A DNA stretch of 51,450 bases, taken from a virus. Taxonomy: Duplodnaviria > Caudoviricetes. The stretch covers positions 1-51,450 of IMG/VR virus record IMGVR_UViG_3300031650_000002; one strand, given 5' to 3'. Both the position numbers and the translations under genes were made by a program. Positions within the stretch are counted from its first letter, which is position 1. Each line of letters opens with the position of its first letter. The notes under the pieces were generated by a model. It saw nothing but the letters and a program-made list of their open reading frames with translations, did no database searches and was not told the DNA's origin. This document shows, piece by piece, positions 1-51,450 of the stretch.

Positions 1-734
1 GAATCAATAACCTTCTTTAATCTTTCTATTTCTTCTAAGGCATGTTCTGAATTTCTAATTGCATCACTGATTTTAGTATTATTTATCATAGCTTCATGTA
101 ATTCATTATTAATATCGTCTACAGATATCAATTCTTCCGGTAGATCTTCGATTGTTATTTCTTCCCTATTGCCGGATAGTAATTTTACTTCCCGGCCTTT
201 TTCTAACCTTTGATCATATAGATAAGCAATCTTTTTTTCTATTTCAGTAATATCAAATCCGGTTAAATCAATAAGCACCTGCCGTTGTTCCCTTCCCTTC
301 ATTTGTGAAAATAGCCGTGGATCAAAACTTAGATAACCGATAAAGTCATCTAATAGCTTTTGCGGGGTAGTATATTTTAGCCCTTTTCCGTTAGTTACTT
401 TTAGTTGGGTATCGCCGTTAGTTTTCCATATTCTATTTACGACAAATAGCACTTCCGGTATTTTCCCAGCAGCCAAGTCTTCAGGTGATAAATCTTCGCA
501 TAAAGTTACCTCACCTTCCGCTTCTTTTTCACCTTTTCTAATTGGCATAGGGGTTTCCTTAGCCCCAGCTTTCCAACACAATATATACCAAATAGAATCT
601 AAGGCCGAAGTTTTACCTGCCCCGTTCTTACCGGATATGATTATTACATCCTCTTTGGGCGTAATATCTATTGCCTTGATCCCTTTTATGTTCGTACTTT
701 TCAAATTTAATATTTTCAAACCTTTATTTTCCAC
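1..734 (-). CDS. SbcC/Rad50-like AAA ATPase, N-terminal part (runs off the window start)
   Basis: Not in the ORF track. Manual translation from GTG at 734 (AGGAGGT RBS upstream): MENKGLKILNLKSTNIKGIKAIDITPKEDVIIISGKNGAGKTSALDSIW, Walker A GKNGAGKT, then coiled coil. Confidence 0.85.
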   Translation of the reverse strand, partial: MENKGLKILNLKSTNIKGIKAIDITPKEDVIIISGKNGAGKTSALDSIWYILCWKAGAKETPMPIRKGEKEAEGEVTLCEDLSPEDLAAGKIPEVLFVVNRIWKTNGDTQLKVTNGKGLKYTTPQKLLDDFIGYLSFDPRLFSQMKGREQRQVLIDLTGFDITEIEKKIAYLYDQRLEKGREVKLLSGNREEITIEDLPEELISVDDINNELHEAMINNTKISDAIRNSEHALEEIERLKKVID

Positions 735-756: not shown

Positions 757-975
757 TTAATAATTTTGCATACCGTTCTCGGTATATAAGATCACCCCCT
801 TATTTATTTTCCTTCGATATGAAAGTCTATCATTCATTACTCTAACGTTACTCAATAAAAGATAATTTAATTTAACTTTTGTTAATTTGTTAGTAACTAA
901 TAAATTGCGAAATGCTTCCATAAAAGTTACTTTTCTTTCAGTTCCTAACTTCATATTTTCTTCAATAATTATCAA
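757..975 (-). CDS. hypothetical protein
   Basis: 72-aa ORF in the co-directional early operon; start uncertain. Confidence 0.4.
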   Translation of the reverse strand: MIIIEENMKLGTERKVTFMEAFRNLLVTNKLTKVKLNYLLLSNVRVMNDRLSYRRKINKGVILYTENGMQNY

Positions 976-981
976 TTATTC

Positions 982-1173
982 TCACCCCCTTAAAATATTT
1001 AATAATTTCTGAGTATTCTTTTGAGAAACTTTACATTTACATTGAGGTCTTTCTTTAAAAGTTAAAATATTATTAATTTTTAATTTATCTAAATACATTA
1101 TTTTTTCGTTACTAAGGACTGGAGTATAGCCGAATGTTTTAGCAATTTTGATAAAATTTTTTTGTGTATACAT
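982..1173 (-). CDS. hypothetical protein
   Basis: AAGGAG RBS precedes ATG at 1173 (MYTQKNF), so shorter than the ORF-track call. Confidence 0.55.
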   Translation of the reverse strand: MYTQKNFIKIAKTFGYTPVLSNEKIMYLDKLKINNILTFKERPQCKCKVSQKNTQKLLNILRG

Positions 1174-2607: not shown

Positions 2608-2691
2608 TTATAAGTATCTCAACAATTCTATCCACCATGCAATAAGTGCGAATATTAATCCCCCACCTACTAACCAGTTTAATATTCCCAT
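2608..2691 (-). CDS. 27-aa hydrophobic membrane peptide
   Basis: MGILNWLVGGGLIFALIAWWIELLRYL with strong AAGGAGG RBS. Confidence 0.55.
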   Translation of the reverse strand: MGILNWLVGGGLIFALIAWWIELLRYL

Positions 2692-2771
2692 AATATCCTC
2701 CTTTCTCATTTCTATGCACCAAAGTTATCACTAACCTCTGTTTCGTGTATGTAATTGAGAATCTAATTGTG

Positions 2772-3418
2772 AACTAACCGGAATTACCGGATAACTGTAG
2801 TCCATATCGACACGTTTGTAGTCATATATAGGGTGTGACCCCATATATTGAACATGCAAGGTCGATAATAGTCTCACTATTTGGTATAAACGTGTCCAGT
2901 TTCGTCACTCTATCATTCGCTAAAAATGATTATTTAAACTATTTTCTGGTAGTGATAATAAGTAATTGCGTTATTATCATCTTGTGTAAATTTTGCACAT
3001 ACTCGATTCTAATGAATGCTATAAATAACACTTTCAGCAACCGTTGAAACAGGGGACGCCATTGAAACGCCCCCGTTACTCCTTCTCCACATGGCAGATG
3101 AGCTAATATTTTAGACGTTCGGCTAAAATATTATATCGTTAAACTTTTCTTACCTGACAATTCGCCTTTTAAGACAATTTGTCTGGTATATCTGTAACAT
3201 AAGGAATAATCCCTCCAAAATATGTTATATATATATTTCCATTAACTTACTGTCCTTAGGTGTTTACACTTCTCAACAACTGTTATCAATTGTGTCCATA
3301 ACTGATAATAGCGTTGTCGCTAATTATCACAATTCGTTTTGAAAGAGAATTAGCAAATATGCTAACATTTCACTTCTACATTAACATTGTGTTAAATATT
3401 CATTTAAAAGTGAACATT
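2772..3418. repeat. array of unrelated short imperfect inverted repeats
   Basis: At least 12 hairpins, e.g. TGATAATAA-N9-TTATTATCA (2953-2979), TAATATTTTAG-N8-CTAAAATATTA (3104-3133), TTAGCA-N4-TGCTAA (3350-3365), TTAACA-N3-TGTTAA (3381-3395); no credible ORF. Confidence 0.8.
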
Positions 3419-3556
3419 ATTGCCGTAGGTGTTATATCAGGAATGCAATATGTATCCTAATCCGCCCATTCCCATACTTCTATTATTCGCTTATTATCTA
3501 TGTTAGGATTTGTTTGTTTCATTTCTCCAACGCTTTAAATAGTATTTTCAAGAATT

Positions 3557-4404
3557 GACCACTCCACCTATCTTGGTTGTTTTCCTTCGCTCTAAGAGTT
3601 CCAGTAACAACTAACATGTATCTTCAAGAAAAGCTACCATGAGCTTTTATCAGCGGAGTGGAACGTTTAAGAACCAATTGCCTGTTTTCCCACCCTGTTC
3701 ATAAAAATCTAATAGCTAATCTATTTATTTCCATCATATTTTTACCCGTTTTTAAACAATGAACGATACCTCGATGAATCGCTTTGGGCATATAGATAAC
3801 ATCATTTTTATTTATATGATGACCTTCTGAATCTTCAAAAGATTGATTAAGGGGATTAAATCCTAACTCACGTCTTTTGAAATCATTTCTTTGGCTATTT
3901 ATTTCCCCTTTTTCTGTCTTATTATATTTTCGATTGTGTTTATTGTGTTTCCCACGATTATTTATACGATATTGTTCTATCTTTTCGAAATTATTTTTTC
4001 GATATCGTTTATCATGTTCTTTTCTTTTTTCGGGGTTATCTTCACGCCATTGTTTCTTATGTTCTGGATTATTTTTACGCCATTGTTTATTATATTCGTT
4101 TTTATCTTCCCGATTGTCCAATGTCCATTGTTTCATATATTCTTTGCGTTTTTCTTTATTGTCAATACGATATTGCTTATCATATGCTTTTCTATCGAAC
4201 ATAATTCTCCTAATCCATTCTCCCACCCTCATGGACTTAGCCACTGCAGTCGGCTACCCTATCACCTCTAAGAAATATAAGCACAGGCTTATATTGTAGT
4301 GTGATATTTATTATGCCAATATTTGGTGAATGTTTTATCACAATGTCGACTAATCTAACACTCACCGCTCGCCACCTTGCCTTCATTCGAAGTTGGAGTG
4401 GCTC
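3557..4404 (-). ncRNA. candidate large structured RNA interrupted by an HNH gene
   Basis: GC-richer non-coding flanks 4222-4404 and 3557-3697. CCACTCCA near the 5' end can pair with TGGAGTGG near the 3' end; internal hairpins GGTGAGTGTT/AACATTCACC and AAAAGCT/AGCTTTT. Confidence 0.4.
3699..4202 (-). CDS. HNH-like homing endonuclease with basic repeats
   Basis: Repeated KQWRxDN units then EGHHINKND...IHRGIVH; AGGAG RBS favours start MFDRKAY at 4202. Confidence 0.7.
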   Translation of the reverse strand: MFDRKAYDKQYRIDNKEKRKEYMKQWTLDNREDKNEYNKQWRKNNPEHKKQWREDNPEKRKEHDKRYRKNNFEKIEQYRINNRGKHNKHNRKYNKTEKGEINSQRNDFKRRELGFNPLNQSFEDSEGHHINKNDVIYMPKAIHRGIVHCLKTGKNMMEINRLAIRFL

Positions 4405-4406
4405 TT

Positions 4407-4504
4407 TGGTGGAGGCGGAGGACGGTCAGCCCTCGTGCAAGAACAAGTATCGACTTGGTGATACCCAAATCCACTATGCCTATTCCTGTCGAACATACAC
4501 CCCC
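4407..4504 (-). ncRNA. miniature tmRNA-like RNA (tRNA-like domain only, 98 nt)
   Basis: 5' GGGGGTG pairs with 3' CGCCTCC-ACCA including G3.U70; stemless D loop ending TTCGAC; helix AGGAATAGG/CTTGTTCTT capped by GATTTGG/CCAAGTC; T arm GAGGG-CTGACCG-TCCTC. Confidence 0.7.
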
Positions 4505-4507
4505 ATA

Positions 4508-5755
4508 TTAAATAACTACTTCAAAGACCGTTCTTTTCTTCCTAATTCTATCTGCACTCTTTGCATTATAGGCTTCAATTTCTGTTTCGATGTTATAGCC
4601 CTCTATATGCTCCGTATGCTGTAAATCAATTTTAATGCTATCTATCCTATTTGAGCTATAAATGATATGTATATTCTGGCTTGCCCTACTCGTTAACTGC
4701 AAGCCCCTTTCGCTATATTCATTAGCCCCCACAATAGAACTACCCCTTGCGTATACATCACCTATCCTGGCAGAATGTAAATGTCCGGATATTATAAAAT
4801 GTATTGTTATACCTTTAGCCGCATATTTGCCCTTTATCCCCTGTATAGCTTTCTCAGTCTTTCCTTTTATTTGATGTCCATGAATAAGTAATATATTTTT
4901 GTTTCCTACTTTCACGATTTGCTCCATCGGGTCCGAGTCTGATAAGAATAAGATTCCTTTACTTCCCCTGAATAGATAATTTAATATATTAAATATCGTA
5001 AAATCGTAGTTATCGGTAGCTAAAATATCATTCCAGGCTATATCTTTTGCTATCCTGCTTTCGTTACCCGTTACCCCTGCCACCGTTAAGTTAAAATCTT
5101 TATTCAAGTCAAGGATCATCAGTTCAATTAACCGGACAGCCAAAAAAGTAGCCTTGCTACGATTGGTCGCCTGTGCCAATAATTCATCAAGTCGCCGGTC
5201 GCTATTCATCAAGTCACCGGTCATAGCGAATAATACATTCTTAACATTCTTTAGCTTAAAATATTCTCTTGCCTCTTCAACGAATAATTTACACCGCTTA
5301 CTTGCTATATCAAAATCATATTTATTAATAGCCAAATTAACCAGCTCATTAAAATGCGGGTCGGTTAAATGGAATATTCCCGCCGCTTCATTCTGGTAAT
5401 TCTTATGTTTTATGGTAAATTTAGCGAGATTATACTGGTCTAAAATCTTAACTAATTCTTGATTATATTCAGCTACTGCATTATCTATCCTGGCATATTC
5501 CCGGAAGGCTTTCCGTTCTATCCGGTTAGAATCGGCAAATCGTTGTGTTTTTTTGGCAAGTTTAATATTTTCTCTTAGTAACTCAAGGTCTATATCAGGG
5601 AATTGACTTAGAATATCTTCATCTAAAAATTCTTTATCACAGCTATTACAATAAAATCTTTGCTTTTTAACTGTTTCCCCTTTTTTGAGTGGTTTATATC
5701 CTGAATATTTCCAATTACTTGAACCACATTTAGGGCATTTAATACTTAGTGGCAT
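4508..5755 (-). CDS. calcineurin-like metallophosphoesterase with N-terminal zinc ribbon
   Basis: DPH, GDL, GNE, HGH, GHLH motifs; CPKC...CNSC at the N-terminus; likely start MPLSIKC at 5755. Confidence 0.85.
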   Translation of the reverse strand: MPLSIKCPKCGSSNWKYSGYKPLKKGETVKKQRFYCNSCDKEFLDEDILSQFPDIDLELLRENIKLAKKTQRFADSNRIERKAFREYARIDNAVAEYNQELVKILDQYNLAKFTIKHKNYQNEAAGIFHLTDPHFNELVNLAINKYDFDIASKRCKLFVEEAREYFKLKNVKNVLFAMTGDLMNSDRRLDELLAQATNRSKATFLAVRLIELMILDLNKDFNLTVAGVTGNESRIAKDIAWNDILATDNYDFTIFNILNYLFRGSKGILFLSDSDPMEQIVKVGNKNILLIHGHQIKGKTEKAIQGIKGKYAAKGITIHFIISGHLHSARIGDVYARGSSIVGANEYSERGLQLTSRASQNIHIIYSSNRIDSIKIDLQHTEHIEGYNIETEIEAYNAKSADRIRKKRTVFEVVI

Positions 5756-6480
5756 ATATTCCCCCAATCAATATTTTGTTATATTTTTTACTATTACAAC
5801 TCTGGCAAGTGGGAACTATATTTTCTTTTGTATTGTCCCCACCTTTACTTATCGGTATAATATGGTCTTTTGTAGGTAAATTTTCCTCATCAAATTCACA
5901 ACCACAATAAGCACATCTGTAATTGTATGCTTCTAATATATCTACCCATTCATTTAAAGTTAAGGTGTTAATAATTACTTTTTCTATTGCACGTCTTTTG
6001 GAATAACTTCTTTGACTACAAGCTTTCCCCTTTTCTGTTTTAAACCAAATCCTACCTAATTCTAAATATCTTTCCTTATGTTTCCTTTTATATTTTCTCC
6101 AATATTCTGGATTTTCTTTCCATAGTTTTTTTTGTATATTTTGAGATTCTTTCCTTATTTTTTATGTAATATTTTTTATAATATCCTTTAAGATATTCTT
6201 TATTATCTTCTTGCCATTTTTTCCCTTTTTTTAATATTTCCTTTCTGTTTTCTCGATAATATTCTTTAAAATGTTCTTTAAAATATTTTTTTCTTTTTTC
6301 TTTATTTCTTATATAGTATTTTTTATTATATTCTTTCATATAATCTTTGTTGTTATTCGCTTGGATTCTTTCTCTATTATCTATATAATATTGTTTCTGT
6401 CGTTTTAATTTTTCTTCCTTATTTTTTTGATAATATATTCTATCCCTCTTTTTTTGATCTTCTTTATTCTTATATGGCAT
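5739..6480 (-). pseudogene. HNH endonuclease with a 1-nt frameshift in an A8 run
   Basis: Removing one A at 6126-6133 joins ORF 6088..6480 to ...YRCAYCG...TKDHIIPISKGGDNTKENIVPTCQSCNSKK. Confidence 0.8.
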
Positions 6481-6522
6481 TAATTACCTCCAAAAAAAGT
6501 TGTCAAGTTCTTCCTCCTTTAC

Positions 6523-6705
6523 TTATTCAAATTCAAAATATCTTTCGATTTTATCATTCTCCTCATTCTCATATTCCTCTTTATCTATCTCTAATCTGTT
6601 TTTACAGTAAGGACACATCGACACATATTTATCATTAACCAACCTAAATGATATAACCCAGCCACAATTCGGGCAGGTATAGAATCTATCATCTACCGCT
6701 ACCAT
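6523..6705 (-). CDS. small zinc-ribbon protein
   Basis: CPNC and CPYC pairs, acidic tail. Confidence 0.6.
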   Translation of the reverse strand: MVAVDDRFYTCPNCGWVISFRLVNDKYVSMCPYCKNRLEIDKEEYENEENDKIERYFEFE

Positions 6706-6715
6706 CTTTATACCC

Positions 6716-7156
6716 TTACCTTACACCTCTAATCAATCTAAGGTTATTCACTCCGTAGACAGCCATATAATCTCCTCCTTCTGCCCAATATGGAGGGTTG
6801 CTATCTAAACTCTTATCGTAATAATGCCTAACGCCTACAATAGGGTTATGCTTTTCTGCACTTTGCATAACAACTACTGCTACACCAATGCATACTTCCC
6901 AAAGCCTGCCTTTAATTATTCCCTTTATTACCTTATAATTATGGTCATCTTTATTCCAACAGCTAAACTGTCTCGGTTGTAAAACAACGTCTTTATAAGT
7001 ATTACCATGTCGTTTAGCTTGTAGCCTGTTTCGTATAACCCAACCCACAATAAGCATCGTTTCTATGCTCTCTCCTCTTGCTTCACCATAAATTGTTTTT
7101 GCAAGATGTAAAAGGTCAGTATTTAGGTTTGCAATCTTAGATAATTTAGAAATCAT
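6716..7156 (-). CDS. endolysin, SleB/CwlJ-type cell wall hydrolase (Hydrolase_2)
   Basis: LAKTIYGEARGE...VIRNR...QFSCWN motifs; next to holin-like genes. Confidence 0.9.
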   Translation of the reverse strand: MISKLSKIANLNTDLLHLAKTIYGEARGESIETMLIVGWVIRNRLQAKRHGNTYKDVVLQPRQFSCWNKDDHNYKVIKGIIKGRLWEVCIGVAVVVMQSAEKHNPIVGVRHYYDKSLDSNPPYWAEGGDYMAVYGVNNLRLIRGVR

Positions 7157-7369: not shown

Positions 7370-7590
7370 CTCTTCGTACCAAAATAAATACCGAGAATAG
7401 ATGTTATAAGGGAAACAACGAAAGCAATAACCCCACTTTGCCCCTTCATCTTTGCTATATCGGTGCTATTCTTAAAAGACCTGCCGTTCAATACGTCTAA
7501 TCTCGTATTGACTTCATCAACTTTTTTATCGGTATTTTTAACGATTTCTTCTATTACTATTAATCTTTCTTTAATTGTTTTTTCAGGCAT
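7366..7590 (-). CDS. XhlA-like coiled-coil membrane protein (lysis cassette)
   Basis: N-terminal coiled coil plus a single C-terminal TM helix. Confidence 0.55.
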   Translation of the reverse strand: MPEKTIKERLIVIEEIVKNTDKKVDEVNTRLDVLNGRSFKNSTDIAKMKGQSGVIAFVVSLITSILGIYFGTKR

Positions 7591-14631: not shown

Positions 14632-15333
14632 TTAAAATCTTTTTTCTTCGCAAAATTCATTGACCATTTCTCTTGTTAATTTTTTCCTTCCATAAATTCT
14701 ATGAAATTCTTTATGACAATCTTCGCAAAACGTAATACCGTTATTTATATCGAGAATCTTATCTTTATTCCCTTGATAATCTTTGATATGATGAGCATTT
14801 AAAATGCCACCTTTTTGCCCGCATTTTTGGCAAATATAATTGTCTCTTTTATATACATCTTTTCTCCATATCCTATAATTGCCTTTTGTCATTTTGCATT
14901 GTCTTTCTCCTGTAATTCCACCTTGCCAATTCCAATGTTTTTTGCCAAAATAATGGCGAGAGACTTTTTTTATATTCTCTTTCCTTAAACAACCACAGCT
15001 TTTTGTTTTGTCTAATAAAAAATTACTATTTGATACTTCACATATATTTCCGCAGTCACATCTAAAAATTGAATACCCACTTTTTTCCGCAGGTTTCAAA
15101 ACCGTTAATCTATTTTTCTTTGTGCCAGGCTTTATTGTTTTTGATAACTTTTTTTTAATTGCACATTTTTGACAAAGAAAAGAACCCGATTTATTTAATA
15201 CTGAAAAATATCTTTCAAAAACAACTCCGCATTTAGGGCACGTAATAACAATTTTTTTCTTACTATTTGGTTTTAATTTATTTAAAGGAATCTTCTTCCC
15301 TCTATATATTATATAATTACTGTATTTTAACAT
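14632..15333 (-). CDS. HNH homing endonuclease with zinc ribbons
   Basis: CDCG, TKSCGC, HWNWQGG, RDNYICQKCG, LNAHHI, NGITFCEDCHKEFH. Confidence 0.9.
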   Translation of the reverse strand: MLKYSNYIIYRGKKIPLNKLKPNSKKKIVITCPKCGVVFERYFSVLNKSGSFLCQKCAIKKKLSKTIKPGTKKNRLTVLKPAEKSGYSIFRCDCGNICEVSNSNFLLDKTKSCGCLRKENIKKVSRHYFGKKHWNWQGGITGERQCKMTKGNYRIWRKDVYKRDNYICQKCGQKGGILNAHHIKDYQGNKDKILDINNGITFCEDCHKEFHRIYGRKKLTREMVNEFCEEKRF

Positions 15334-21873: not shown

Positions 21874-23037
21874 TCATTTCACCTCAATTAAATTCTTTTT
21901 TGCATTCCCCTCGTTAAAAATATCCCAGCGTAAGGGCAATTTATTATCATTTAATCGAATACCTTCATTAATATAGTCCCCAGCCTTATTGTAGTTCTTC
22001 TTCTCAAATTCATAAGTAGCCAGCCAGTTGAGTATTTCGGGAATAATTATCTTTGTATTACTGATCAATAACTGATCATATAAACTACCTTCACTATTTA
22101 CGATATTAAGAGCTATTTCAAAATTTTCTCGAGCTTTTTCGTTGTCTTTACCTGCCCAGTAGTTACCGATCATTAAATATATTTGAGAAATTCTACTTGA
22201 ATAATGGCAGGCTTCCCTTTCTATTCTTTCGGCATTTTCTATATCATTAAGTACTAAGTAAGATCCTACCAAATTAACAAATACCTCTAAAAAAGCTGTC
22301 CAGCCCTCATTATAATTTTCTTTTCTCATCTTTTTTATCCATATTTCCCCATATTTAATTGTATTTTTGAAGTCTCTTGTTACATAATAGGTCTTTACCA
22401 AATGTGTTAGATTGTGTAAATTCTCCGGATGTTCTTTATATTCTTTTTGGAGCATAGGTAAACTGCGTTCCATTTTCTTCTCATATAACTTCTCCCCTTT
22501 TTCACCTTGAAAAATATATCCATAATGTTTAAATATTATATGAGGAGCAAAAAGATAAGGAGCCTTACAAATTGGTTTATTATGCACTGCTTGTTCGTAA
22601 TGAAAATCGCCATCATTTTTAAACAAACGTGGCTGTAACATTTCCGAATATTGCTTTAAATCTCTGGTGTGATAATTAAATAATTTTACAAATACAGAAG
22701 GCTCTTTATATTTTGGATTCAAGATTATATCCTCTAAAGGATATAAGCATTTTTGGTCAAGCTCTTCATCAGCGTCTAAAATAAGGATTTTATCTCCTGT
22801 AGCCTTTTTAATCCCATAATTACGAGCTTCGCTAAAATTCCAGGGGATAAATTCTTTTTTATATACCTTGTCGGTATATTCTTTAGCTACTTCTATAGTC
22901 CTATCAGTACTTCCCGTATCTGTTATTAATAATTCGCACCATTTTTCATGTATGATAGGAAGGAAACTATCTAAACACCGCTTAAGATTTGCCTCCTCGT
23001 TCTTAGTAATTAAGCACATTGATAATTTTGGTTTCAT
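21874..23037 (-). CDS. GT2 glycosyltransferase with TPR repeats
   Basis: LSMCLITKNEE, DTGSTDRT, NFSEARN, ILDADE, VHN, HYGY. Confidence 0.9.
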   Translation of the reverse strand: MKPKLSMCLITKNEEANLKRCLDSFLPIIHEKWCELLITDTGSTDRTIEVAKEYTDKVYKKEFIPWNFSEARNYGIKKATGDKILILDADEELDQKCLYPLEDIILNPKYKEPSVFVKLFNYHTRDLKQYSEMLQPRLFKNDGDFHYEQAVHNKPICKAPYLFAPHIIFKHYGYIFQGEKGEKLYEKKMERSLPMLQKEYKEHPENLHNLTHLVKTYYVTRDFKNTIKYGEIWIKKMRKENYNEGWTAFLEVFVNLVGSYLVLNDIENAERIEREACHYSSRISQIYLMIGNYWAGKDNEKARENFEIALNIVNSEGSLYDQLLISNTKIIIPEILNWLATYEFEKKNYNKAGDYINEGIRLNDNKLPLRWDIFNEGNAKKNLIEVK

Positions 23038-23258: not shown

Positions 23259-23795
23259 GTTCGCCAGCAGATTCATTCCCTTTAGGCTGGCAAGCGAAGC
23301 TAAAAAAGGGGAGACGTCCATTTGTTGAATCACTAAAGTCAAAACTTTTAATCCTTCCTTTGCCGTCAAGTTTTCGTTTAGGAATTTGATTAATCTTCTG
23401 GATGGTTCTTTTTCACTATTCACAATCCCGTAAGCAATCATCTTAATTAATTTATCTTTATTTTCGACTATATTTTTAGCCCCTAAATCCAGGATATTGA
23501 CTTCTTTCCCTTTATTATTTCCCTCATCTTTCATAACTCCCAATAATTCTTTGGTATCTAAATCCAATAAAATCTTACTAATCTTCAAAAGCGTCCCCAT
23601 TCGAATAGGGTAAATAACAAATTTTCGTTTAATGGGAATTAAATTAAGCTTATGAAGTATATTCGTTTTGCTTACGGTTATTTCAAAATCTACCCCTTTT
23701 TCTAAAATGGAATCTATAGCATTTTGACGAACTTGGTTATCGTCTTTGGTATCCAATGGAACTTTAACTTTCTCTTTAGACTTTTTCTTCGACAT
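23247..23795 (-). CDS. tail assembly chaperone (gpG-like)
   Basis: Between major tail and tape measure genes; ends AAC AAA AAA ACC TAA. Confidence 0.75.
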   Translation of the reverse strand: MSKKKSKEKVKVPLDTKDDNQVRQNAIDSILEKGVDFEITVSKTNILHKLNLIPIKRKFVIYPIRMGTLLKISKILLDLDTKELLGVMKDEGNNKGKEVNILDLGAKNIVENKDKLIKMIAYGIVNSEKEPSRRLIKFLNENLTAKEGLKVLTLVIQQMDVSPFLASLASLKGMNLLANKKT

Positions 23796-24381
23796 ATTTT
23801 CTCCTTTTTAATATAAAATAATCCTTCCAGAAATTTCTATTAATATTAACTTTACTGTTACAACTTCCACAAAGTGCTGTTAAATTATCTGGTAAACAAT
23901 TTCTCTTGACATAGTCAATATGATGTATACTAAGTTTTCTTATATTCTCTATTTCAGGCATACCACATAATTGACATTTATATCCGTCTCTTTGTCTTAT
24001 TAATTCTTTAAGTTGCCGATTAAATTCAACAGTATAAGGCTCAAAAGAAAGCCCGCCTCGCCAATTAGGATTTTTTTTACCAGCAAATATACCTTTACGA
24101 GTTTCACTCATTTTTTTCCTTGTTTCTTCTGTTGGATGCATATTTAAATGAGCGATTCTTAATTTTTCTTTTGATTCTTCTGAATGGTGTTTGCCTAACC
24201 TGCCAGAAGGTTTGCCTTTAAAAGCAATACTTATTCTTTTCTTAGTTTCTTCTGTACGATGTTGACCTAAATTGGAAAGTCTTATTTTTTCTTTAGTTTT
24301 TTCTGTGGGGTGTTTTCCTAACATAGCAAGTCTCTGTTTATTTTTATGTTCTTCTGTTCGTTCATATACCCCAGTTGGCAT
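23776..24381 (-). CDS. NUMOD3-repeat HNH homing endonuclease
   Basis: GKHHSEESKEK repeats; RDGYKCQLCG, LSIHHID, LCGSCN. Confidence 0.9.
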   Translation of the reverse strand: MPTGVYERTEEHKNKQRLAMLGKHPTEKTKEKIRLSNLGQHRTEETKKRISIAFKGKPSGRLGKHHSEESKEKLRIAHLNMHPTEETRKKMSETRKGIFAGKKNPNWRGGLSFEPYTVEFNRQLKELIRQRDGYKCQLCGMPEIENIRKLSIHHIDYVKRNCLPDNLTALCGSCNSKVNINRNFWKDYFILKRRKYVEEKV

Positions 24382-24989: not shown

Positions 24990-25856
24990 TTATTTTTTTA
25001 CTTTATTTAATTTATTTAAAATATTTTCTTCATTAACTTCAATTTCATTAAAATATACTATTTCCCAGCCATACTGTTTAAACACTTCTGACCTTTGGAT
25101 TTTCCAATCTTCTATGCTTATATGATTTCTTTTCTTGTAGTATCTGGCATAAACCTCTATTGCTATTTTTTCGCTGTTAGTATTAATAAAATCAGGATTA
25201 TACCTGCCTATAATAAAAGAACCATCACCAACATATTTATAAGGCAAATTATGTTTATCCACTATAGATTGAAACTTTTCTTCTAAGCTCGTTGGGATTC
25301 GCCTGCATAGAATCTTTTTAAGCACTTCTTTTGTGTAATGGGAATGAGCAATTCTATTTTTTTCTTTACTCTCTTCTGTATGACGTTTACCGTAAAAATG
25401 ATTATTTTCACCACTTATTGCTATACTAATTTTTCTTTTCGTTTCTTCTGAAACTAAATGCCCTTTATGAGATTCGCTCATTTTTTCTATAATCTCTTTT
25501 AAGAAATGTTTATTTTTATTCCAAGGAATATTACCTAAGTGGCCAAGCCCTATCTTTTCTTTAGTTTCTTCTGAATGATGTTTGCCTTTCATAGGAGAAG
25601 GTCTACCCGAATTAGCAATACTCATCTTTTGTAAGGTCTCATCACTTAGATTTTCTCTCAAATGAGCAATCCTCATTTTTTCTCTGGATTCTTTAGTTGG
25701 AGATTCTAAATGTTTACCTAAATTGGCAAAACTTATTTTCATTTTATGTTCTTTACTTAAAGATTTACCTAATTTAGCATTTCTCATTTTTTCTAAAGTT
25801 TCCTCTAAATAGACTCCAGTTTTCCCTTTATTCCAAGGAATTTGACCTATAGGCAT
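24990..25856 (-). CDS. NUMOD3-repeat endonuclease with DUF559/Vsr-like domain
   Basis: PWNKG and GKHHSEETK repeats; TSLE...PDF...IAIEV...YGWEIV. Confidence 0.85.
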   Translation of the reverse strand: MPIGQIPWNKGKTGVYLEETLEKMRNAKLGKSLSKEHKMKISFANLGKHLESPTKESREKMRIAHLRENLSDETLQKMSIANSGRPSPMKGKHHSEETKEKIGLGHLGNIPWNKNKHFLKEIIEKMSESHKGHLVSEETKRKISIAISGENNHFYGKRHTEESKEKNRIAHSHYTKEVLKKILCRRIPTSLEEKFQSIVDKHNLPYKYVGDGSFIIGRYNPDFINTNSEKIAIEVYARYYKKRNHISIEDWKIQRSEVFKQYGWEIVYFNEIEVNEENILNKLNKVKK

Positions 25857-28465: not shown

Positions 28466-29071
28466 TTATGCGAATCTTATTCTGGCAGTAAGAGCAGTCT
28501 TGTCAGCAGCAGTTACAAAATAAGGCATCTCTGATTCATCGACCGTACCTCTTACAACAGCCCCAGCGAATAGGTTATTCAGTAAGGTTGTTACACCGTC
28601 CCTTCTAACTTCTACAGTATCTCTTAATACAGCACTAGCCGCATAGAGAGGGGTATTAGTAGCCGCAACAGCTCCCTCGAAAAGGATAGCATTAGTTGCA
28701 ACACCCTTAAGAGGTTTACTCGCAAGTAGTACCGCATTGGAAACTAATCCTGGAGTAATAGTCAGGATAGTAGGAGCATGCACAGTTCCGAACCCGCCAA
28801 TATATTCGCCTTCTACAAATTCATTCCGGGGATCTACATACATAATTGTTGCATCGCTTGCTACATTATGAATGACTTTCGCAGTTTTAACTAAGTCATA
28901 CAGCCCCACGCTGGTAGTGTCCGCATGTAGTAAAGCTCCCTTTTTTATCTCCTGTGTAGTAGTTTTAAATCTATCAGTTCTAATAGTTACTCCACCGGGA
29001 ATATCTTCTAATATTTTTAGAAATACAGGGTCATATACGACCCCTGCTTCTTTTGATACTTGTAAACTCAT
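28466..29071 (-). CDS. head decoration protein
   Basis: Between scaffold and capsid genes; EDIPGGVTI start, AVVRGTV end. Confidence 0.7.
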   Translation of the reverse strand: MSLQVSKEAGVVYDPVFLKILEDIPGGVTIRTDRFKTTTQEIKKGALLHADTTSVGLYDLVKTAKVIHNVASDATIMYVDPRNEFVEGEYIGGFGTVHAPTILTITPGLVSNAVLLASKPLKGVATNAILFEGAVAATNTPLYAASAVLRDTVEVRRDGVTTLLNNLFAGAVVRGTVDESEMPYFVTAADKTALTARIRFA

Positions 29072-29804: not shown

Positions 29805-30251
29805 TTAAGTTTTTATTATAATCTTTTTAAGAGAATATTTTTCTGCATCATCTTTAGGTAAAAGATATCCTCTCGATGTTTCTATCTCTACTTCTTTATA
29901 TCTTTTTAAAAAATGTAATTGTTTTAAAAATTTCTTTCCAAATATATATATAAATTGGAAATCTCCTATGACATAAAGCCAAGAATTATCTTCTCTAAAA
30001 ATACCGGAAGGAATAAATTCTAAATTTTCTTTATTGGTTTTCTCTGATATTTCTATATAAAGATTCCCTGTTTCTTTAAACCTATTATCAAATTTTATTT
30101 CAATTCCTGCTTTATTTTCACCTAATGCATATTGATATTCTTTACTTGTATAGGTTAATATCGGTAACCCAATTTTATATAATTCTTCAACTATAAAATC
30201 TTGATAATAATTTCCTTCTTTTAATTTCTCCTCATAGTAAGGCGTATTTAT
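29805..30251 (-). CDS. PD-(D/E)xK nuclease-like ORF lacking a canonical start
   Basis: 148-codon open frame missed by the ORF track: ...GENKAGIEIKFDNRFKETGNLYIEISEK...; only candidate start is ATA overlapping the methyltransferase TAA. Confidence 0.6.
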   Translation of the reverse strand: MNTPYYEEKLKEGNYYQDFIVEELYKIGLPILTYTSKEYQYALGENKAGIEIKFDNRFKETGNLYIEISEKTNKENLEFIPSGIFREDNSWLYVIGDFQFIYIFGKKFLKQLHFLKRYKEVEIETSRGYLLPKDDAEKYSLKKIIIKT

Positions 30252-31171
30252 TTTATTTCAGCTCCCCATGTATCCCAATTATCTATTTTTCGCCGTGCAA
30301 ATAGTTCTATTTTTTTACTGTTTGGATACATCTTTTCTATTAACTCTCTAAAATATTCTGGTTTTTCTGAATGTTCTTTTGACCTTTCAATAGAAATAAC
30401 ACTATCTTCTAATTCTTTATTTTGTTTAAGAAAAGACCCTTTTGTGCATACTAATAAAAATTCGTGTCTTACAGAATTATAATGTCCCCAGTTGTGTTTC
30501 ACTTTATCCCAAATAAAAGATGACTTATATTTAAAGCCCCATGCTTTTATAACTTCAAAACATTCTTCTAATAATGGAGAAGTTACCCACAAAAATAAAA
30601 CTGCATTATCATCTGTAATATCTTCTATATTTAATTCACATAACTCTTGTATGGTCATTGAAGTATAATGTCGTTCAACCGAACCATACCCCTCAACAAG
30701 TGTATCTCCATAAGACCACGGAGGGTCTGCATAAAGAACATTATATTTGCCTTCTGGTAATTCAGGAGTCCCTTCAAATTCATTTTCTCTTTGCAATTTT
30801 CTTGCTAACTTAACAGCCCCAGAAGTGGTTATTTCTTTTTTGTCTTGTATATATTCTTCAAATTTCTCTTCAGGTATAGAAGCGATTCGCTGCCAGCTAG
30901 AAGATTGGTCTTTTGTTACTCCTATATCTGACAAAGTCGTAGGGTGCGATTTTGTGCCAATTGTAATTTGTTCTGGTAATAACTCCCCAGCTCTGCGTTC
31001 AGCCCTTAACTTTATTTCTTCTGCTTTTCTTATTAAGTCTGGACTTTCTTTTGCCTGTATCATTGCATAACGATATGCTTCGGCTTTATCTCTAATAAGT
31101 TTAATTTCATCAACTTTATGGCATTCCTGTATAGCAAATTTCATTTTGTTATACTTTTCTAAATATTCCAT
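30248..31171 (-). CDS. MT-A70-family adenine methyltransferase with N-terminal DNA-binding region
   Basis: YADPPW, LFLWVT, WGFKY, HSEKP, IELFAR. Confidence 0.9.
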   Translation of the reverse strand: MEYLEKYNKMKFAIQECHKVDEIKLIRDKAEAYRYAMIQAKESPDLIRKAEEIKLRAERRAGELLPEQITIGTKSHPTTLSDIGVTKDQSSSWQRIASIPEEKFEEYIQDKKEITTSGAVKLARKLQRENEFEGTPELPEGKYNVLYADPPWSYGDTLVEGYGSVERHYTSMTIQELCELNIEDITDDNAVLFLWVTSPLLEECFEVIKAWGFKYKSSFIWDKVKHNWGHYNSVRHEFLLVCTKGSFLKQNKELEDSVISIERSKEHSEKPEYFRELIEKMYPNSKKIELFARRKIDNWDTWGAEIK

Positions 31172-31191
31172 ATTCCCCCCTTTTATAAAAC

Positions 31192-31252
31192 AAAAAAAAG
31201 CGCCAGAGACTAAGAAGTTTAATTCTTAATCTTTGGCGCTCTAAGGCACTCT
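31192..31252 (-). terminator. Com-site/terminator element, copy B
   Basis: AGAGTGCC-TTA-GAGCGCC-AAAGATTAAGAATTAAACTTCTTAGTCTC-TGGCGC-T8. Confidence 0.85.
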
Positions 31253-31290
31253 CAAAATTCTATTTAATTTTCAAGAATATATACACATTA

Positions 31291-31319
31291 ATTATAATAT
31301 AATATTTTTTATATGTCAA
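31291..31319 (-). promoter_or_regulatory. consensus sigma70 promoter upstream of copy B
   Basis: TTGACA (31319-31314), 17 nt, TATAAT (31296-31291). Confidence 0.85.
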
Positions 31320-31992
31320 CTTTTCTATCATTAAAATATTTATCATAGTTATAGAAGATTACAAATCCCTTAACGAATTGGAAACTTACATATTGGATGG
31401 GCATATCTACCCCGTAAATTTTAATCTTAATCGCCTCAAATTTAATCTTATTAAACCAAACCAATATTTCTTCTATGGAGTACGCCTCATCTATAATCTG
31501 TAATCTACCCGGTAATTTCCCATGCATAAAAACCTGTAGTCTGGCGTCAGGAATATTAAGGTAGATAGTTGTATTTTCATGAGAATACCGTTCTATATTC
31601 TTTAGCAAGCCTGGGATTTTCTCTCGTGGTATATGCTCCATTATATCACATAGGCATATCACATCAAACTTTTTCTTATCAAGATTAATATTAGTTACAT
31701 CACCTGTTAGATATTTAATGTTTTTATGGTTAGAATTTTCTTCTGCAAACTCGATTAATTTTGGTGACAAATCTACACCAATAACTTTTGCACCTAATTC
31801 AGCAATATAACGGGTAGTGATCCCGGTCCCGCAACCTAAATCTAATACACTCATACCATCACCAATTATTTTTCTTAGGTCTTCTTTAATTTTGGTATGG
31901 CGGGGGTTTTCACGGGTATGATCATATTTAAGATAATCGAGGAAATTGTCGTAATAATTTTTTACCTCGGTTGTAGTGGGTTTTTTATTCAT
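31309..31992 (-). CDS. class I SAM-dependent methyltransferase (possible sugar O-methyltransferase)
   Basis: VLDLGCGTG, GVDLS, FDVI...DIMEHI; coupled to a glycosyltransferase. Confidence 0.85.
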   Translation of the reverse strand: MNKKPTTTEVKNYYDNFLDYLKYDHTRENPRHTKIKEDLRKIIGDGMSVLDLGCGTGITTRYIAELGAKVIGVDLSPKLIEFAEENSNHKNIKYLTGDVTNINLDKKKFDVICLCDIMEHIPREKIPGLLKNIERYSHENTTIYLNIPDARLQVFMHGKLPGRLQIIDEAYSIEEILVWFNKIKFEAIKIKIYGVDMPIQYVSFQFVKGFVIFYNYDKYFNDRKVDI

Positions 31993-32921
31993 GATATTGC
32001 CTCTATAACTTTTCTTAATTCGTTCAATTGATTTTCAAGTATCCAGCCTTCGTATTTAACCCAGTTTTTGTATGAATTAGAATGATAATCTTCATCTCTT
32101 ATTTCATTCACCGCTTCCTCAATAGTATTAAAAATATCAATGTCAGGATATAATTCTCTTGCCCCTCTGAAATTATGTATAACTGGTTTTATCCCTCTTG
32201 CCATAGCCTCAGTTATGGCCAGCGAATGCCCTTCATGAATCGAGGTATGTAGTAAGTAGTCCATACCTTTCCAGAAGTCCTCCATGTCATCGATCCAGCC
32301 ATAAAAAACAACGTTATCCTGTAACCCCATTTCTTTAATCATGTGCTCTAAATAAACTTTATACCGTAGATCCTGATAAGATCCTGCTATATGTAATAAG
32401 TATCTCTTATCAATATCTACCAGCTTTTTCATTATTTGCAGTGCCATTTGCGGGTTCTTTTTGTAATTAATGAATCCTACCCAGGCAACATTAAACCCTG
32501 TCTCTCTCTTTTTAAATGGAATTTTATCTATATCTACTCCATTATATATAACCTCATTCTTTACTTTATCTATAATACCAGGAGATAATTCATTCAAGAT
32601 TTCTCTAATATGTGGAGCTACAAAGATTAATCTATCTACCACATCCCAGTTAATCTGCTTAGGGAAGTCAGTAAATATTTCATAGCTATGAAGACGGATT
32701 ATTACCTTTTTTCCTTCTATCTTTTTATAATTAGTCCCTATAACAGCTACTTCATTCGCCCATTCAAAGAAAATTATATCCCCATAATCTATTGCATTAA
32801 AAATATCCCATTTAGTCCTTACTACAAACTTCCTTACTGTATAATCACTTGATAGCCCTTCTATTATCGGGTCTATAAAATTATCTAACCCAGCTGCGCA
32901 AATTACGCTTATTTTTTCCAA
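31989..32921 (-). CDS. GT4 glycosyltransferase
   Basis: VIYNGVD, SIHEGHSLAITEAMARG (Ex7E). Confidence 0.9.
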   Translation of the reverse strand: MEKISVICAAGLDNFIDPIIEGLSSDYTVRKFVVRTKWDIFNAIDYGDIIFFEWANEVAVIGTNYKKIEGKKVIIRLHSYEIFTDFPKQINWDVVDRLIFVAPHIREILNELSPGIIDKVKNEVIYNGVDIDKIPFKKRETGFNVAWVGFINYKKNPQMALQIMKKLVDIDKRYLLHIAGSYQDLRYKVYLEHMIKEMGLQDNVVFYGWIDDMEDFWKGMDYLLHTSIHEGHSLAITEAMARGIKPVIHNFRGARELYPDIDIFNTIEEAVNEIRDEDYHSNSYKNWVKYEGWILENQLNELRKVIEAIS

Positions 32922-32972
32922 TTTGCCTCCTTTATTATTTAATCTTTTGGGGTTAATCTTTCCGCAATCTCT

Positions 32973-33308
32973 TCATCCGTTTAACACCCTCATATATTCT
33001 TTAATAAACTCTGGGTTATCCCGAATAAAGCAGGAAGAACACGTCGTTAATTGGCAAGTCATTCTCTCGTCATTTTCTAAGTCAAAACGCATTTCATAAC
33101 GCATACCATGCCAAGCCTCGTGTAGGATTACCTGAAGTTCATATTGATAATCAAGTGAATCAAGTATTTTTATTTCTTTAGCCCCTTCGTTAATATGACC
33201 ATCTAAAGAACGTTCATCTTCTACAATTATTTTATGATAGGTAATTATATAATCACTCGATACAATTCTAACCTTCTTAAACTTTATACGCTTTTCTTTC
33301 TGTTTCAT
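32973..33308 (-). CDS. small HExxH metallopeptidase-like protein
   Basis: VILHEAWHG followed by EndE. Confidence 0.7.
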   Translation of the reverse strand: MKQKEKRIKFKKVRIVSSDYIITYHKIIVEDERSLDGHINEGAKEIKILDSLDYQYELQVILHEAWHGMRYEMRFDLENDERMTCQLTTCSSCFIRDNPEFIKEYMRVLNG

Positions 33309-33319
33309 AATCCCCCTTT

Positions 33320-34033
33320 CTATCCTATATAGAACCTTTGATTCTCTATTAACTGCTCTTCAGCTACATCCCTCACTACCCGAGCAGGTGCACCCATAAC
33401 TACCATTCGAGCCGGTACATCTTTGGTAATTATGCTACCAGCAGCTACTAAAGCATCCTCTCCGATAACTTTACCCGGGAGAATAACCGCTCCCGCTCCA
33501 ATTCTACCGCCTTTTTTAACTGTAACGCCTTTAAAATGTTTAAATCGTTCTTCTGTCCTACCTAAATAATTATCATTACTTGTCACCACTCCGGGAGCGA
33601 TAAAAACATAATCTCCTAATTCTGAATAAGCGGTAATATAACAATTGCTTTCCAATTTGCAACGTTTGCCAATTAAGACATAATTCTCAATAGTTACGCC
33701 CCTGCCAATTATGGTATATTCGCCTATAGTGGTATTTTCTCTTATAGTAGCCATGTCAGCCACCATAACATTATTAGCGATATTAGAGCCAATATAAATA
33801 ATTGCACCTGACCCGATTATACAATTATCGCCTATCACCGTTGGAGTTAAATCCTTTTCCTCTTTTAAAGTGCTTATACTTGCTTTCATGGGAAGTTTTC
33901 CGATTACTGCGTTGTCATCAATTCTTACGTTATTGCCGATTATAACGCCGCTTTTGATTACTACGTTATGGCCAAACTGACAATTATTGCCGATTATAAC
34001 GTTATCTTCAATAATTACATTGTTTGATTTCAT
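33320..34033 (-). CDS. hexapeptide-repeat N-acetyltransferase (WbpD-like)
   Basis: Left-handed beta-helix repeats; DYVFIAPGVVTSND, VAAGSIITKDVP. Confidence 0.85.
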   Translation of the reverse strand: MKSNNVIIEDNVIIGNNCQFGHNVVIKSGVIIGNNVRIDDNAVIGKLPMKASISTLKEEKDLTPTVIGDNCIIGSGAIIYIGSNIANNVMVADMATIRENTTIGEYTIIGRGVTIENYVLIGKRCKLESNCYITAYSELGDYVFIAPGVVTSNDNYLGRTEERFKHFKGVTVKKGGRIGAGAVILPGKVIGEDALVAAGSIITKDVPARMVVMGAPARVVRDVAEEQLIENQRFYIG

Positions 34034-35794: not shown

Positions 35795-35831
35795 TTAATC
35801 CCTATCCTTTTCAAAGAATACCTTTAGACAT

Positions 35832-37031: not shown

Positions 37032-37050
37032 TTATTCCTCCTTTTTCTTT

Positions 37051-37224: not shown

Positions 37225-37225
37225 T

Positions 37226-50875: not shown

Positions 50876-51450
50876 TTAAAATGGAACATCATCATTTTTG
50901 GCTTCTTTTTCAGCTTTTACTTCGGCCTTTACTTTAGTCTTTACTTTAACCTCTCCGTTTTCTTGTTTTACTTCTCCTTCTTCGATATAAAACCCAATCA
51001 TCCCGGTATCATCCACTTCTTCGGCCCAGATTTGATATCCAAATTCATTAGCCATTTGGCGCACTGTTTCTTTGCTTTTGTTATCGAGTAAAGTCCAATC
51101 TGAAATTCTTAGAACTTTTAATTTTGGATTTAAGGCCATTCCAATTTTTACACAGATCTTTAAATGCTCGGAGTATGCTATCTGGGAAAACGGAGTATCA
51201 TCATAGGCTATACCATCTTCGGTTAGGCTTAGTTTCTGGTCCGGAATCTTATGCCAATTTTCTTTTAGGCCATCCACTTTAATTTTGGTTTGCTCGTCTA
51301 TTTCCTGAGTAAAATCGTTATACTCATTTTTGGCCTTGTTTTCTTTTCTGTCTGCTATCTTATTACGGTCCCGGGCTCTTATCTGCTCATTTATTTTTTG
51401 CGATTCAGTTAGTTTTTCTTTTAGGGAATCAACCGGTATTTTTTCGTGGG
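50876..51450 (-). CDS. SbcC/Rad50-like AAA ATPase, C-terminal part (enters from the window end)
   Basis: Frame is open to the window end (HEKIPVDSLKEKL...); degenerate signature FSQIAYSE and Walker B-like LKVLRISDWTLLD. Confidence 0.8.
   Translation of the reverse strand, partial: HEKIPVDSLKEKLTESQKINEQIRARDRNKIADRKENKAKNEYNDFTQEIDEQTKIKVDGLKENWHKIPDQKLSLTEDGIAYDDTPFSQIAYSEHLKICVKIGMALNPKLKVLRISDWTLLDNKSKETVRQMANEFGYQIWAEEVDDTGMIGFYIEEGEVKQENGEVKVKTKVKAEVKAEKEAKNDDVPF

Follow-up and report, generated by a model that had tools for sequence, protein, structure and literature searches.

What is the purpose, in a virus genome, of an RNA gene that bears the hallmarks of transfer-messenger RNA (tmRNA) and has no frame for a peptide tag? 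The question is raised by a 98-nucleotide (nt) element of IMGVR_UViG_3300031650_000002, a record of the IMG/VR database (Duplodnaviria; Caudoviricetes). The whole record, 51,450 bp long and estimated to be 95% complete, was analysed in this study and is referred to below as the window. A first-pass annotation, made from the sequence alone, had described the element as a tmRNA mimic consisting of the alanine-accepting tRNA-like domain (TLD) without the mRNA domain. Judged from its sequence and predicted pairing, the RNA is very probably a divergent member of a widespread, virus-borne family of TLD-only RNAs, 62-135 nt in length. The overall explanation that we prefer combines this identity with competition against the tmRNA of the host, and we consider it moderately probable.

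The element is a tRNA-like domain without an mRNA-like domain

The RNA gene is located on the minus strand (window position = 4505 minus RNA position), and the segmentation given in the first-pass annotation proved to be exact (4504..4407). The features named there, i.e. G3·U70 and A73, a stemless D loop ending in UUCGAC, helix 2a, the linker, the T arm and the encoded CCA, could all be read from the sequence or from its fold (Table 1). G3·U70 and A73 are identity elements for alanine. The minimum free energy structure (-39.2 kcal/mol, z = -2.76; equalled by 2 of 200 shuffled sequences) recovers the acceptor stem, a long helix, the T hairpin and a single-stranded ACCA end. The long helix (AGGAAUAGG/CUUGUUCUU) runs on, past an internal loop, into a 7-bp hairpin. 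Thus, a hairpin insert of 31 nt closes helix 2 at the place where a full tmRNA has its pseudoknots and tag frame.

Neither a resume codon, nor a tag frame, nor pseudoknots were found, since the 31 nt between the two strands of helix 2a form one hairpin; ARAGORN did not predict a tag either. The D loop is short and is devoid of the GG present in most members of the family. The linker is GCAC, which, like ACAC, occurs in some members of the family, the most common form being GGAC. As had been noticed at first sight, the T loop (CUGACCG) does not fit the canonical pattern UUCRAnU; the T stem itself is formed.

Table 1. Positions of the TLD-only RNA gene, its parts and the gene upstream of it in the window
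Feature	Position	Strand	Basis or remark
Whole TLD-only tmRNA-like RNA gene, 98 nt	4407..4504	-	Sequence, fold, covariance model R1
Acceptor stem, 5' strand GGGGGUG (RNA 1-7)	4498..4504	-	Pairs with 4411-4417; same in L001 and L362
Stemless D loop UAUGUUCGAC (RNA 8-17), ends UUCGAC	4488..4497	-	Sequence; unpaired in fold
Helix 2a, 5' strand AGGAAUAGG (RNA 18-26)	4479..4487	-	Pairs with 4439-4447 (fold)
Internal loop and 7-bp apical hairpin (RNA 27-57)	4448..4478	-	Fold; insertion relative to model R1
Helix 2a, 3' strand CUUGUUCUU (RNA 58-66)	4439..4447	-	Fold, model R1
Linker GCAC (RNA 67-70)	4435..4438	-	Sequence
T arm GAGGG/CUGACCG/UCCUC (RNA 71-87), non-canonical loop	4418..4434	-	Stem formed in fold and in R1
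Acceptor stem, 3' strand CGCCUCC (RNA 88-94); gives G3·U70 and U6·G67	4411..4417	-	Sequence, fold
Discriminator A73 and encoded CCA (RNA 95-98)	4407..4410	-	Sequence
SbcD-like exonuclease gene, 419 aa, upstream of the RNA	4508..5767	-	phrog_284 exonuclease, E 5.6e-53

Three other interpretations of the sequence were considered and rejected. A one-codon tag, GCA-UAG (Ala and stop, RNA 26-31), lies partly within helix 2a and is not conserved in the relatives described below. A permuted two-piece tmRNA is not compatible with two contiguous ends in the normal order, nor is an intron-split tmRNA compatible with a CCA end that directly follows the T arm.

Standard tools did not recognize the element. 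ARAGORN found no tRNA, tmRNA or tag anywhere in the 51,450-bp window, and no Rfam family matched the window at its gathering score, the threshold of RF00023 (47 bits) not being reached by the 98-nt RNA. The two checks that had been proposed at first pass, ARAGORN and Infernal with the tmRNA and mitochondrial tmRNA (mt-tmRNA) models, therefore returned no match to this RNA. A search with RF00023 of the IMG/VR record itself was also negative. The only Rfam match at E 10 near the element is a meaningless OppA thermometer, situated downstream. No match was obtained when positions 3000-7000 of the window were compared by blastn with the genomes of cultured phages. The exact 26-nt pattern of the 5' end had 0 matches in IMG/VR, and an exact 31-nt pattern of the junction matched a single contig, L001, which is described below. 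In a scan for promoters and terminators, the counts (sigma-70 promoters) were not above those of shuffled sequences.

The family of TLD-only RNAs is widespread in viruses

Relatives were fetched using a pattern taken from the ends of the window RNA itself (5' strand of the acceptor, TTCGA and the 3' end). The census spans two acceptor sequences, and the pattern counts for IMG/VR are lower bounds: at least 118 stretches for RNAs of 50-84 nt, at least 14 for RNAs of 80-114 nt, and at least 14 with the second acceptor type (GGGGCUG/..GCUCC), 14/14 of which match the family model at 39-71 bits. A decoy pattern, in which the 3' anchor was reversed, yielded 9 loci, namely 7 family members that contain the string and 2 new ones. 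The viral loci fitting the pattern numbered 145, with 90 unique sequences, of which 83 (137 of the 145 loci) passed strict pairing tests (acceptor 7/7, T stem at least 4/5, helix 2a at least 5/6 pairs). Among the 7 sequences that failed, 5 did so on helix 2a alone and 2 look like chance matches. The passing sequences are 62-112 nt long, the upper limit being 135 nt if L001, which fails the helix 2a test alone, is included. A scan without a fixed 3' end gave two size groups, of 68-135 nt and 339-449 nt, plus a 239-nt match without a T arm.

The acceptor, UUCGA and CCA columns carry no weight in the evaluation of these sequences, because the search pattern prescribed them. No search pattern included helix 2a or the T stem, so these two helices were not matched by construction. 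In an alignment of 75 sequences, 96% of the cells of the model pairs can pair, as compared with 49-58% when the partners are slid by 1-3 columns. Double-sided changes were observed in all 7 model pairs of helix 2a and in 4 of the 5 pairs of the T stem, and the covariation score was 0.584, versus 0.144 in shuffled alignments. The search for homologues and covariation suggested in the first-pass annotation thus led to a virus-borne family whose helices covary.

A covariance model (R1; its E-values are rough) was built from 71 sequences, with the window and L001 left out. With filters off, it identified the 98-nt RNA with a score of 40.6 bits and an E-value of 2e-7. Each of the 19 pairs of the model is formed and no position is mispaired, in agreement with the earlier remark that the stems are intact. 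The 98-nt RNA was the only significant match of R1 in the 51 kb, the next one having an E-value of 2.4. For L001 the score was 51.9 bits.

The curated Rfam model of tmRNA was applied to 20 members of the family. Its threshold was passed by 14 of them, in each case with the whole middle of the model deleted, and missed by L146, L120, L209, L230, L144 and L224, five of which have unusual D and T loops. By this curated criterion the family is therefore the TLD of tmRNA. Together with the covarying helices and the Rfam match of L001, this bears out the identification of the element as a tmRNA TLD without an mRNA domain.

When ARAGORN was run on 60 family loci, two elements were mis-called (one as tRNA-Glu, the other as a permuted tmRNA) and the rest were missed. 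The program detected tRNA genes on 16 of the 60 loci (25 of them at L196); in about 8 cases the element is located within approximately 500 nt of a tRNA gene or inside a tRNA array. Nearly all members are encoded on the same strand as their neighbours. The flanking open reading frames (ORFs; the two nearest on the same strand per side, giving 139 ORFs at 40 loci) include terminases, helicases, recombinases and lysins.

The same pattern was also applied to one genome of each of 185,579 bacterial and archaeal species. It fitted 102 loci, and 100 of these were searched with the model, giving one strong match (73.7 bits), in a 1.6-kb contig of a Butyrivibrio metagenome-assembled genome (MAG), and 8 weak ones (30-35 bits). 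Most of the pattern matches in bacteria and archaea are due to chance and occur in GC-rich genomes. This near absence from bacterial genomes indicates that the class is essentially virus-borne.

Several weaker signals were recorded in the course of these searches. Four loci (L258, L269, L291, L323) gave weak 65-nt matches to the family model (33-35 bits); at least the first three are situated on one Myxococcota MAG chromosome (OZ245034.1) and may represent a repeated tRNA-like element. A short blastn comparison with cultured phages yielded marginal candidates only, which were not counted as members: Maribacter phage Panino (30 bits), Achromobacter phage JWDelta (29 bits), Xanthomonas phage Xoo-sp13 (22 bits). 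In Panino (L379, PP540027) the annotated 333-nt 'tmRNA' overlaps two tRNA genes, and this annotation looks doubtful, since R1 finds just a weak 92-nt TLD-like match there (1441-1532).

Relatives at the same position carry TLD-only RNAs of other lengths

In the window, G1 of the RNA is located 3 nt (UAU) past the stop codon of the SbcD-like gene. The contig L001 encodes an SbcD-like protein that is 88% identical to that of the window (protein search), and the same stop codon and UAU are followed by an RNA of 135 nt. The acceptor stem and ACCA of this RNA are identical to those of the window RNA, its D loop reads UAAGGUUUCGAU and its T arm is canonical. The RNA passes the Rfam gathering threshold for tmRNA (51.7 bits versus 47, E 2e-19), 276 central positions of the model being replaced by 50 nt in the alignment. 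ARAGORN found nothing in L001. A scan of metagenomes revealed two further relatives, L362, in which the upstream protein is 84% identical and a 73-nt RNA occupies the same spot, and L358, where the RNA is 94 nt long; this contig comes from the metagenome that also yielded L001, but its upstream sequence is different.

The junction TAA-TAT-GGGGG is common to the window, L001 and L362. Pairwise alignment of the window with L001 fails past the end of the gene, both within the RNA and downstream of it. Three versions of helix 2a are found (AGGAAUAGG/CUUGUUCUU, GGGAUAG/CUAUCCC and AUAACGA/UCGUUAU), and the T stem is GAGGG/UCCUC in the window, UCGGG/CCCGA in L001 and CGCGG/CCGCG in L362, with each pair compensated in both helices. 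It had been pointed out that a full-length tmRNA at this site in relatives would reduce the element to the product of a recent deletion. No such tmRNA is present at the site in L001, L362 or L358, so this objection does not apply.

Two other features were noted in L001. At 7397-7460 (+), right after the ACCA, there is a sequence that starts with GGGGGUA and ends with UACCCUC-AGGCACCA, with two small hairpins in between. It may be a second tRNA-like element; its partial match to a permuted-tmRNA model (E 3e-4) comes mostly from the preceding T arm, and the window has no such sequence. An abiF RNA motif at 7465-7503 (+), some 70 nt past the 135-nt RNA, scored 36.1 bits (gathering 37, E 9e-5). 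No counterpart of this motif was found in the window, where Rfam at E 1 gave nothing between 2000 and 4420.

The D and T loops of the family vary together

The elbow of tRNA is locked by the contacts G18-U55 and G19-C56, the partners being the GG of the D loop and the UUC of the T loop. Most members of the family possess both, that is a D-loop GG and a 7-nt T loop starting with UUC. Among 91 unique sequences, the GG is accompanied by the 7-nt UUC loop in 57 cases and by another T loop in 20. When the GG is absent, the UUC loop was found once and another loop 13 times. The 20 other loops that occur with GG are mostly near-canonical (UCCGAUU, or loops of 6 or 8 nt starting with UUC). Smaller changes are matched as well, i.e. 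U at T-loop position 3 (U56; L187, L230) goes with GA replacing GG, and G at T-loop position 2 (G55; L123, L224, L120, L132 and probably L134/L144) goes with AG. This covariation is evidence, at the level of sequence comparison, for selection acting on the tRNA elbow in RNAs without an anticodon arm.

By these signatures the window copy is a member of the minority subtype in which the D-loop GG and the T-loop UUC have been lost together. Its loops are UAUG and CUGACCG, respectively, and those of L146 are CAUA and UAGUU. A D-loop A-U is accompanied by a T-loop U-purine in three cases, namely the window, L146 and a population variant that retains the first 63 nt of the window RNA (see below). 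We read the elbow of the window copy as probably re-coded, or possibly relaxed, and not as randomly decayed, a reading that rests on few lineages and on our own register of the D loop. In a re-coded elbow the G18-U55/G19-C56 lock may have been swapped for the A-U/U-purine combination.

Genome and population context of the locus

The genome is siphovirus-like: genes for the terminase, portal, major head, tape-measure and tail proteins were recognized, each of them on the minus strand. The similarity of the portal (about 35%) points weakly to phages of Bacteroidota. Four salt-marsh DNA runs are possible sources of the stretch, and the contigs of four other runs were compared with it. In one other salt-marsh DNA run the contigs carry C27U and have lost U8. 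One population variant keeps the first 63 nt of the window RNA and has a swapped T arm (stem GGGAA/UUCCC, loop starting with UUA); in another, the 3' end CCCCAC-CGCCUCC-ACCA joins 9 nt from window position 4320. In contigs of two other runs positions 3697-4255 are skipped, 3696 being joined to 4256 with 26 other letters between them. These variants indicate that the locus is polymorphic by block exchange, and that the acceptor end is retained in every case.

Just downstream of the RNA there is a 181-aa ORF (3699-4244, minus strand) rich in Lys/Arg/Asn/Glu repeats. Its C-terminal His-His...Asn...His arrangement is HNH-like by eye, and no Pfam or PHROGs match was obtained. Since the contigs of two runs skip this ORF, it is present or absent across genomes, like a mobile insertion. 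Four HNH/homing-endonuclease-like ORFs are found on the minus strand elsewhere in the window (6088-6480, 14632-15333, 23776-24381 and 24990-25856), and their scattered distribution fits the block-wise polymorphism at the RNA locus.

An SbcC-like ATPase gene (phrog_1499/phrog_77; AAA_23, SMC_N) is split over the two ends of the record, also on the minus strand. Its N-terminal part is located at 734..3 and its C-terminal part at 51448..50876, some 100 positions of the profile being absent, which implies that the genome is circularly permuted or that the record is nearly complete. The SbcD-like and SbcC-like genes are separated by approximately 3.8 kb of small ORFs and non-coding DNA, the RNA included. 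Within this interval, 2690-3698 is a stretch of about 1 kb without an ORF of at least 50 aa on the coding (minus) strand, and without an Rfam match at E 1. A few short blocks in it resemble the non-coding DNA downstream of the L001 RNA (e.g. ACGGCAAUAAUGUUCAC versus AUGGCAAUAGUGUUCAC). The stretch may contain a structured RNA or regulatory sites.

Further away, at 30248-39714 (minus strand), the head genes are interspersed with modification and sugar genes, namely four DNA/tRNA methyltransferase-like and two glycosyltransferase-like ORFs, an aminotransferase, a UDP-glucose dehydrogenase-like ORF and a GFO/IDH/MocA oxidoreductase. A third glycosyltransferase-like ORF is situated at 21874-23037. 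These genes may serve the modification of DNA or of the virion. On an unrelated phage contig (L158), a RAGATH-24 RNA (871-1073, plus strand; 54.1 bits, gathering 45.3) was detected about 1 kb upstream of the mini-tmRNA.

Possible role of the RNA and alternative explanations

According to the explanation that we prefer, the RNA would be co-transcribed with the SbcD-like gene and released at its 5' end by RNase P, cutting at G1, 3 nt past the stop codon. The alanyl-tRNA synthetase of the host would then charge it via G3·U70, A73 and CCA, and the host SmpB would bind it at the UUCGAC/GNAC region and helix 2a. In this form it would rival the host tmRNA as a partner of SmpB, and its competition might extend to EF-Tu and stalled ribosomes; the predicted outcome is a suppression of SsrA tagging during infection. 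We infer these steps from established tmRNA biology and from the experiment cited in PMC4131195. Having no resume codon or tag frame, the mini RNA cannot direct tagging, which favours competition with the host tmRNA. Competition is also favoured because it matches the sole experimental statement found, the remark in PMC4131195, citing Mao et al. 2009, that a similar molecule is a strong inhibitor of tmRNA irrespective of whether it can be charged, an effect that may be due to titration of SmpB. The competition for SmpB as such is put forward tentatively, as a mechanism with chances slightly short of even.

Several observations weigh against this explanation. The Rfam tmRNA and mt-tmRNA models give no match to the window RNA even at E 10, and a copy without this match, without the canonical T loop and without the D-loop GG could be impaired. 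The sequence was found only in DNA runs of salt-marsh metagenomes, and in no RNA run. Among the 139 flanking ORFs of the family there is no SmpB, peptidyl-tRNA hydrolase, synthetase or recurring partner, so the context gives no functional hint.

The main rival, which we regard as unlikely, is a tag-free rescue of ribosomes, in which a complex of the alanyl-TLD with SmpB and EF-Tu would enter the stalled ribosome and take over the nascent chain. The peptidyl-RNA would then drop off and be hydrolysed, and ribosomes would be freed for phage translation without marking proteins for proteolysis. The retention of the elements for charging and delivery (G3·U70, A73, CCA, stacked acceptor and T stems) agrees with such a role, as does the location of L196, L023, L060, L230 and L146 inside phage tRNA arrays, among genes that support translation. 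Moreover, the plastid forms that lack a coding sequence (CDS) and the tag-less mitochondrial forms (with imported SmpB) are interpreted in the relevant part of PMC11915505 as helping incomplete mRNAs. However, the inhibition of tmRNA by a TLD-only molecule irrespective of its charging, as stated in PMC4131195, speaks for titration and not for productive rescue. The 139 flanking ORFs include neither a peptidyl-tRNA hydrolase nor a release factor, and the altered elbow of the window copy may hinder its accommodation on the ribosome. It would be improbable, in our opinion, that the family is functional and the window copy alone a decaying relic, whose canonical loops were lost after the split from an ancestor of the L001/L362 type. 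The relatives do make the window RNA look exceptional: in the positional relatives L001 and L362 the D loop UAAGGU occurs together with a canonical T loop (UUCGAUU), L358, whose contig differs in the sequence upstream, combines the same D loop with a near-canonical 8-nt T loop, and the window alone deviates. Its subtype is rare (about 14 of the 91 unique sequences are without the D-loop GG), and the RNA is invisible to ARAGORN and to Rfam. On the other hand, decay is hardly reconciled with 19 intact model pairs, intact extra pairs and a perfect acceptor end next to intergenic DNA that cannot be aligned with L001. In at least 9 further lineages of the family, as here, a change in the D loop is accompanied by one in the T loop, and the population variant with the same 63 nt at the 5' end has a different T arm and a similar U-purine start of the loop.

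The RNA might alternatively be no more than a processing signal, i.e. a site for RNase P/RNase Z that splits the SbcD-like mRNA from the downstream transcript, with no role for the released RNA. The start of the RNA 3 nt past the stop codon in the window, L001 and L362 would suit such a signal, and at 7 of 39 loci the element is at most 14 nt away from the end of an upstream ORF on the same strand. Nearly all members, moreover, share the orientation of their neighbours. Still, a processing signal needs no G3·U70, A73, encoded CCA, UUCGAC loop or helix 2a, all of which are kept throughout the family, and the members occur in many unrelated contexts, including tRNA arrays. We therefore judge this alternative very improbable; processing at these sites is in fact compatible with competition against the host tmRNA rather than opposed to it. 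The least credible proposal is that the element is an integration-site remnant, an attP-like copy of the ends of host ssrA, or a bait for a host nuclease directed at tRNA or tmRNA. Integration into ssrA is common among temperate elements (PMC11915505), and Mycobacterium phage DS6A, which carries a TLD-only element, encodes a tyrosine integrase. However, attP-like copies contain the 3' part of ssrA only, whereas the element has both halves, joined by a short hairpin. In the window no integrase was matched among the 52 ORFs of at least 100 aa, nor among 10 ORFs checked against Pfam, and in DS6A some 10 kb separate the element from the integrase gene. The suspicion, voiced at first pass, of a mere copy of ssrA ends is thus not supported. 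The near absence of the family from bacterial genomes argues against this proposal, and no defence nuclease cleaving tmRNA was found in the literature searched.

Implications

Bacteria rescue their ribosomes mainly by trans-translation, which is also a drug target. To our knowledge, the ways in which phages handle it have barely been explored. The occurrence of the TLD-only design in far more than a hundred contigs of environmental phages turns one published case into a testable class, and allows the questions of an SmpB sponge, of tag-free ribosome rescue and of the gain for the phage to be asked at the level of this class. Since ARAGORN and Rfam both miss members of the family, current annotation undercounts TLD-only genes. 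The covariation of the D and T loops provides a natural mutational series for those parts of the elbow that are relevant to SmpB, EF-Tu and the ribosome.

A broader reading, which joins these points, is that TLD-only mimics, with hundreds of them in environmental phages from many lineages and next to none in bacterial chromosomes, are a common phage tool directed against host trans-translation, or replacing it, and that the window copy represents a re-coded subtype; we offer it as a speculation that is rather doubtful at present. If it were true, the elbow could have been re-coded in order to escape a host factor that reads the canonical form (a modification enzyme, a nuclease or a ribosomal contact), or to permit SmpB binding without ever engaging the ribosome. 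It should also be considered that excision of the RNA 3 nt past the stop codon would leave the SbcD-like mRNA almost without a 3' tail, i.e. as a nearly non-stop message. Such a message could couple the expression of the gene to the state of ribosome rescue.

Comparison with known tmRNA-like systems

The standard tmRNA (RF00023) and the window RNA share the acceptor with G3·U70, A73 and CCA, the UUCGAC D loop, helix 2a, the linker and the T stem. They differ in size (374 model positions versus 98 nt) and in the absence from the window RNA of pseudoknots, a resume codon, a tag frame and a canonical T loop. The acceptor identity (G3·U70 and A73) and the stacking of the acceptor and T stems are also common to tRNA-Ala and alanine minihelices. 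In contrast to tRNA-Ala, the window RNA has no anticodon arm and no D stem, and it possesses the UUCGAC loop and helix 2a typical of tmRNA.

Forms with little beyond the TLD, and with no tag frame, are known from organelles. They include CDS-less plastid tmRNAs of about 65 bp (Mallomonadaceae) and tag-less mitochondrial forms, described in PMC11915505, and the CDS-less tmRNAs of jakobid and oomycete mitochondria (PMC11915505, PMC4131195). The organellar forms descend vertically from the tmRNA of the organelle itself and function with a nucleus-encoded SmpB, whereas the phage forms are extra copies entering a cell that already has a full tmRNA. The first-pass annotation was right in stating that tag-less forms exist in some mitochondria; what it missed is that one is also known from phage DS6A (PMC4131195, PMC11915505).

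As regards phages, the section of PMC4131195 (Hudson, Lau & Williams 2014) concerned with them names ten phages with ssrA, including 'Mycobacterium phage DS6A (TLD only)'. The corresponding text of a database paper of 2025 (PMC11915505) states the same of the DS6A form; the similar molecule to which both papers refer was reported from E. coli. In the literature searched, the DS6A element is discussed in these two tmRNA-database papers only. We found no description there of TLD-only RNAs as a widespread phage class, and supplementary tables or the tmRNA database may list more of them. In PMC11100668 (DRT2/Neo), tmRNA is mentioned merely as the tagging path bypassed by ArfA.

The covariance model R1 finds the DS6A element in JN698994 (L363), at 28478-28560 (83 nt, 53.1 bits, E 3e-10), between gp33 and gp34; the TLD-only tmRNA is unannotated in this GenBank record. 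Like the window RNA, it is phage-borne and has a 7-bp acceptor with G3·U70, a stemless D loop ending in CGAC, a helix 2a that is closed short, a CAC-type linker and a T arm, with no pseudoknots and no tag frame. The differences concern the acceptor (GGGGCCG in DS6A, GGGGGUG in the window), the D loop (GGUCGAC versus UUCGAC) and the elbow, DS6A having the D-loop GG and a canonical UUCGAUU T loop where the window has UAUG and CUGACCG. Furthermore, the 3' end of the DS6A element is ACUA, so its CCA is not fully encoded, whereas the window encodes ACCA. The window RNA adds the 31-nt internal loop and hairpin, and the two phages also differ in host phylum and GC content. The kind of RNA is thus already published, from one phage, and the window element is a divergent variant of it, not a new kind of system.

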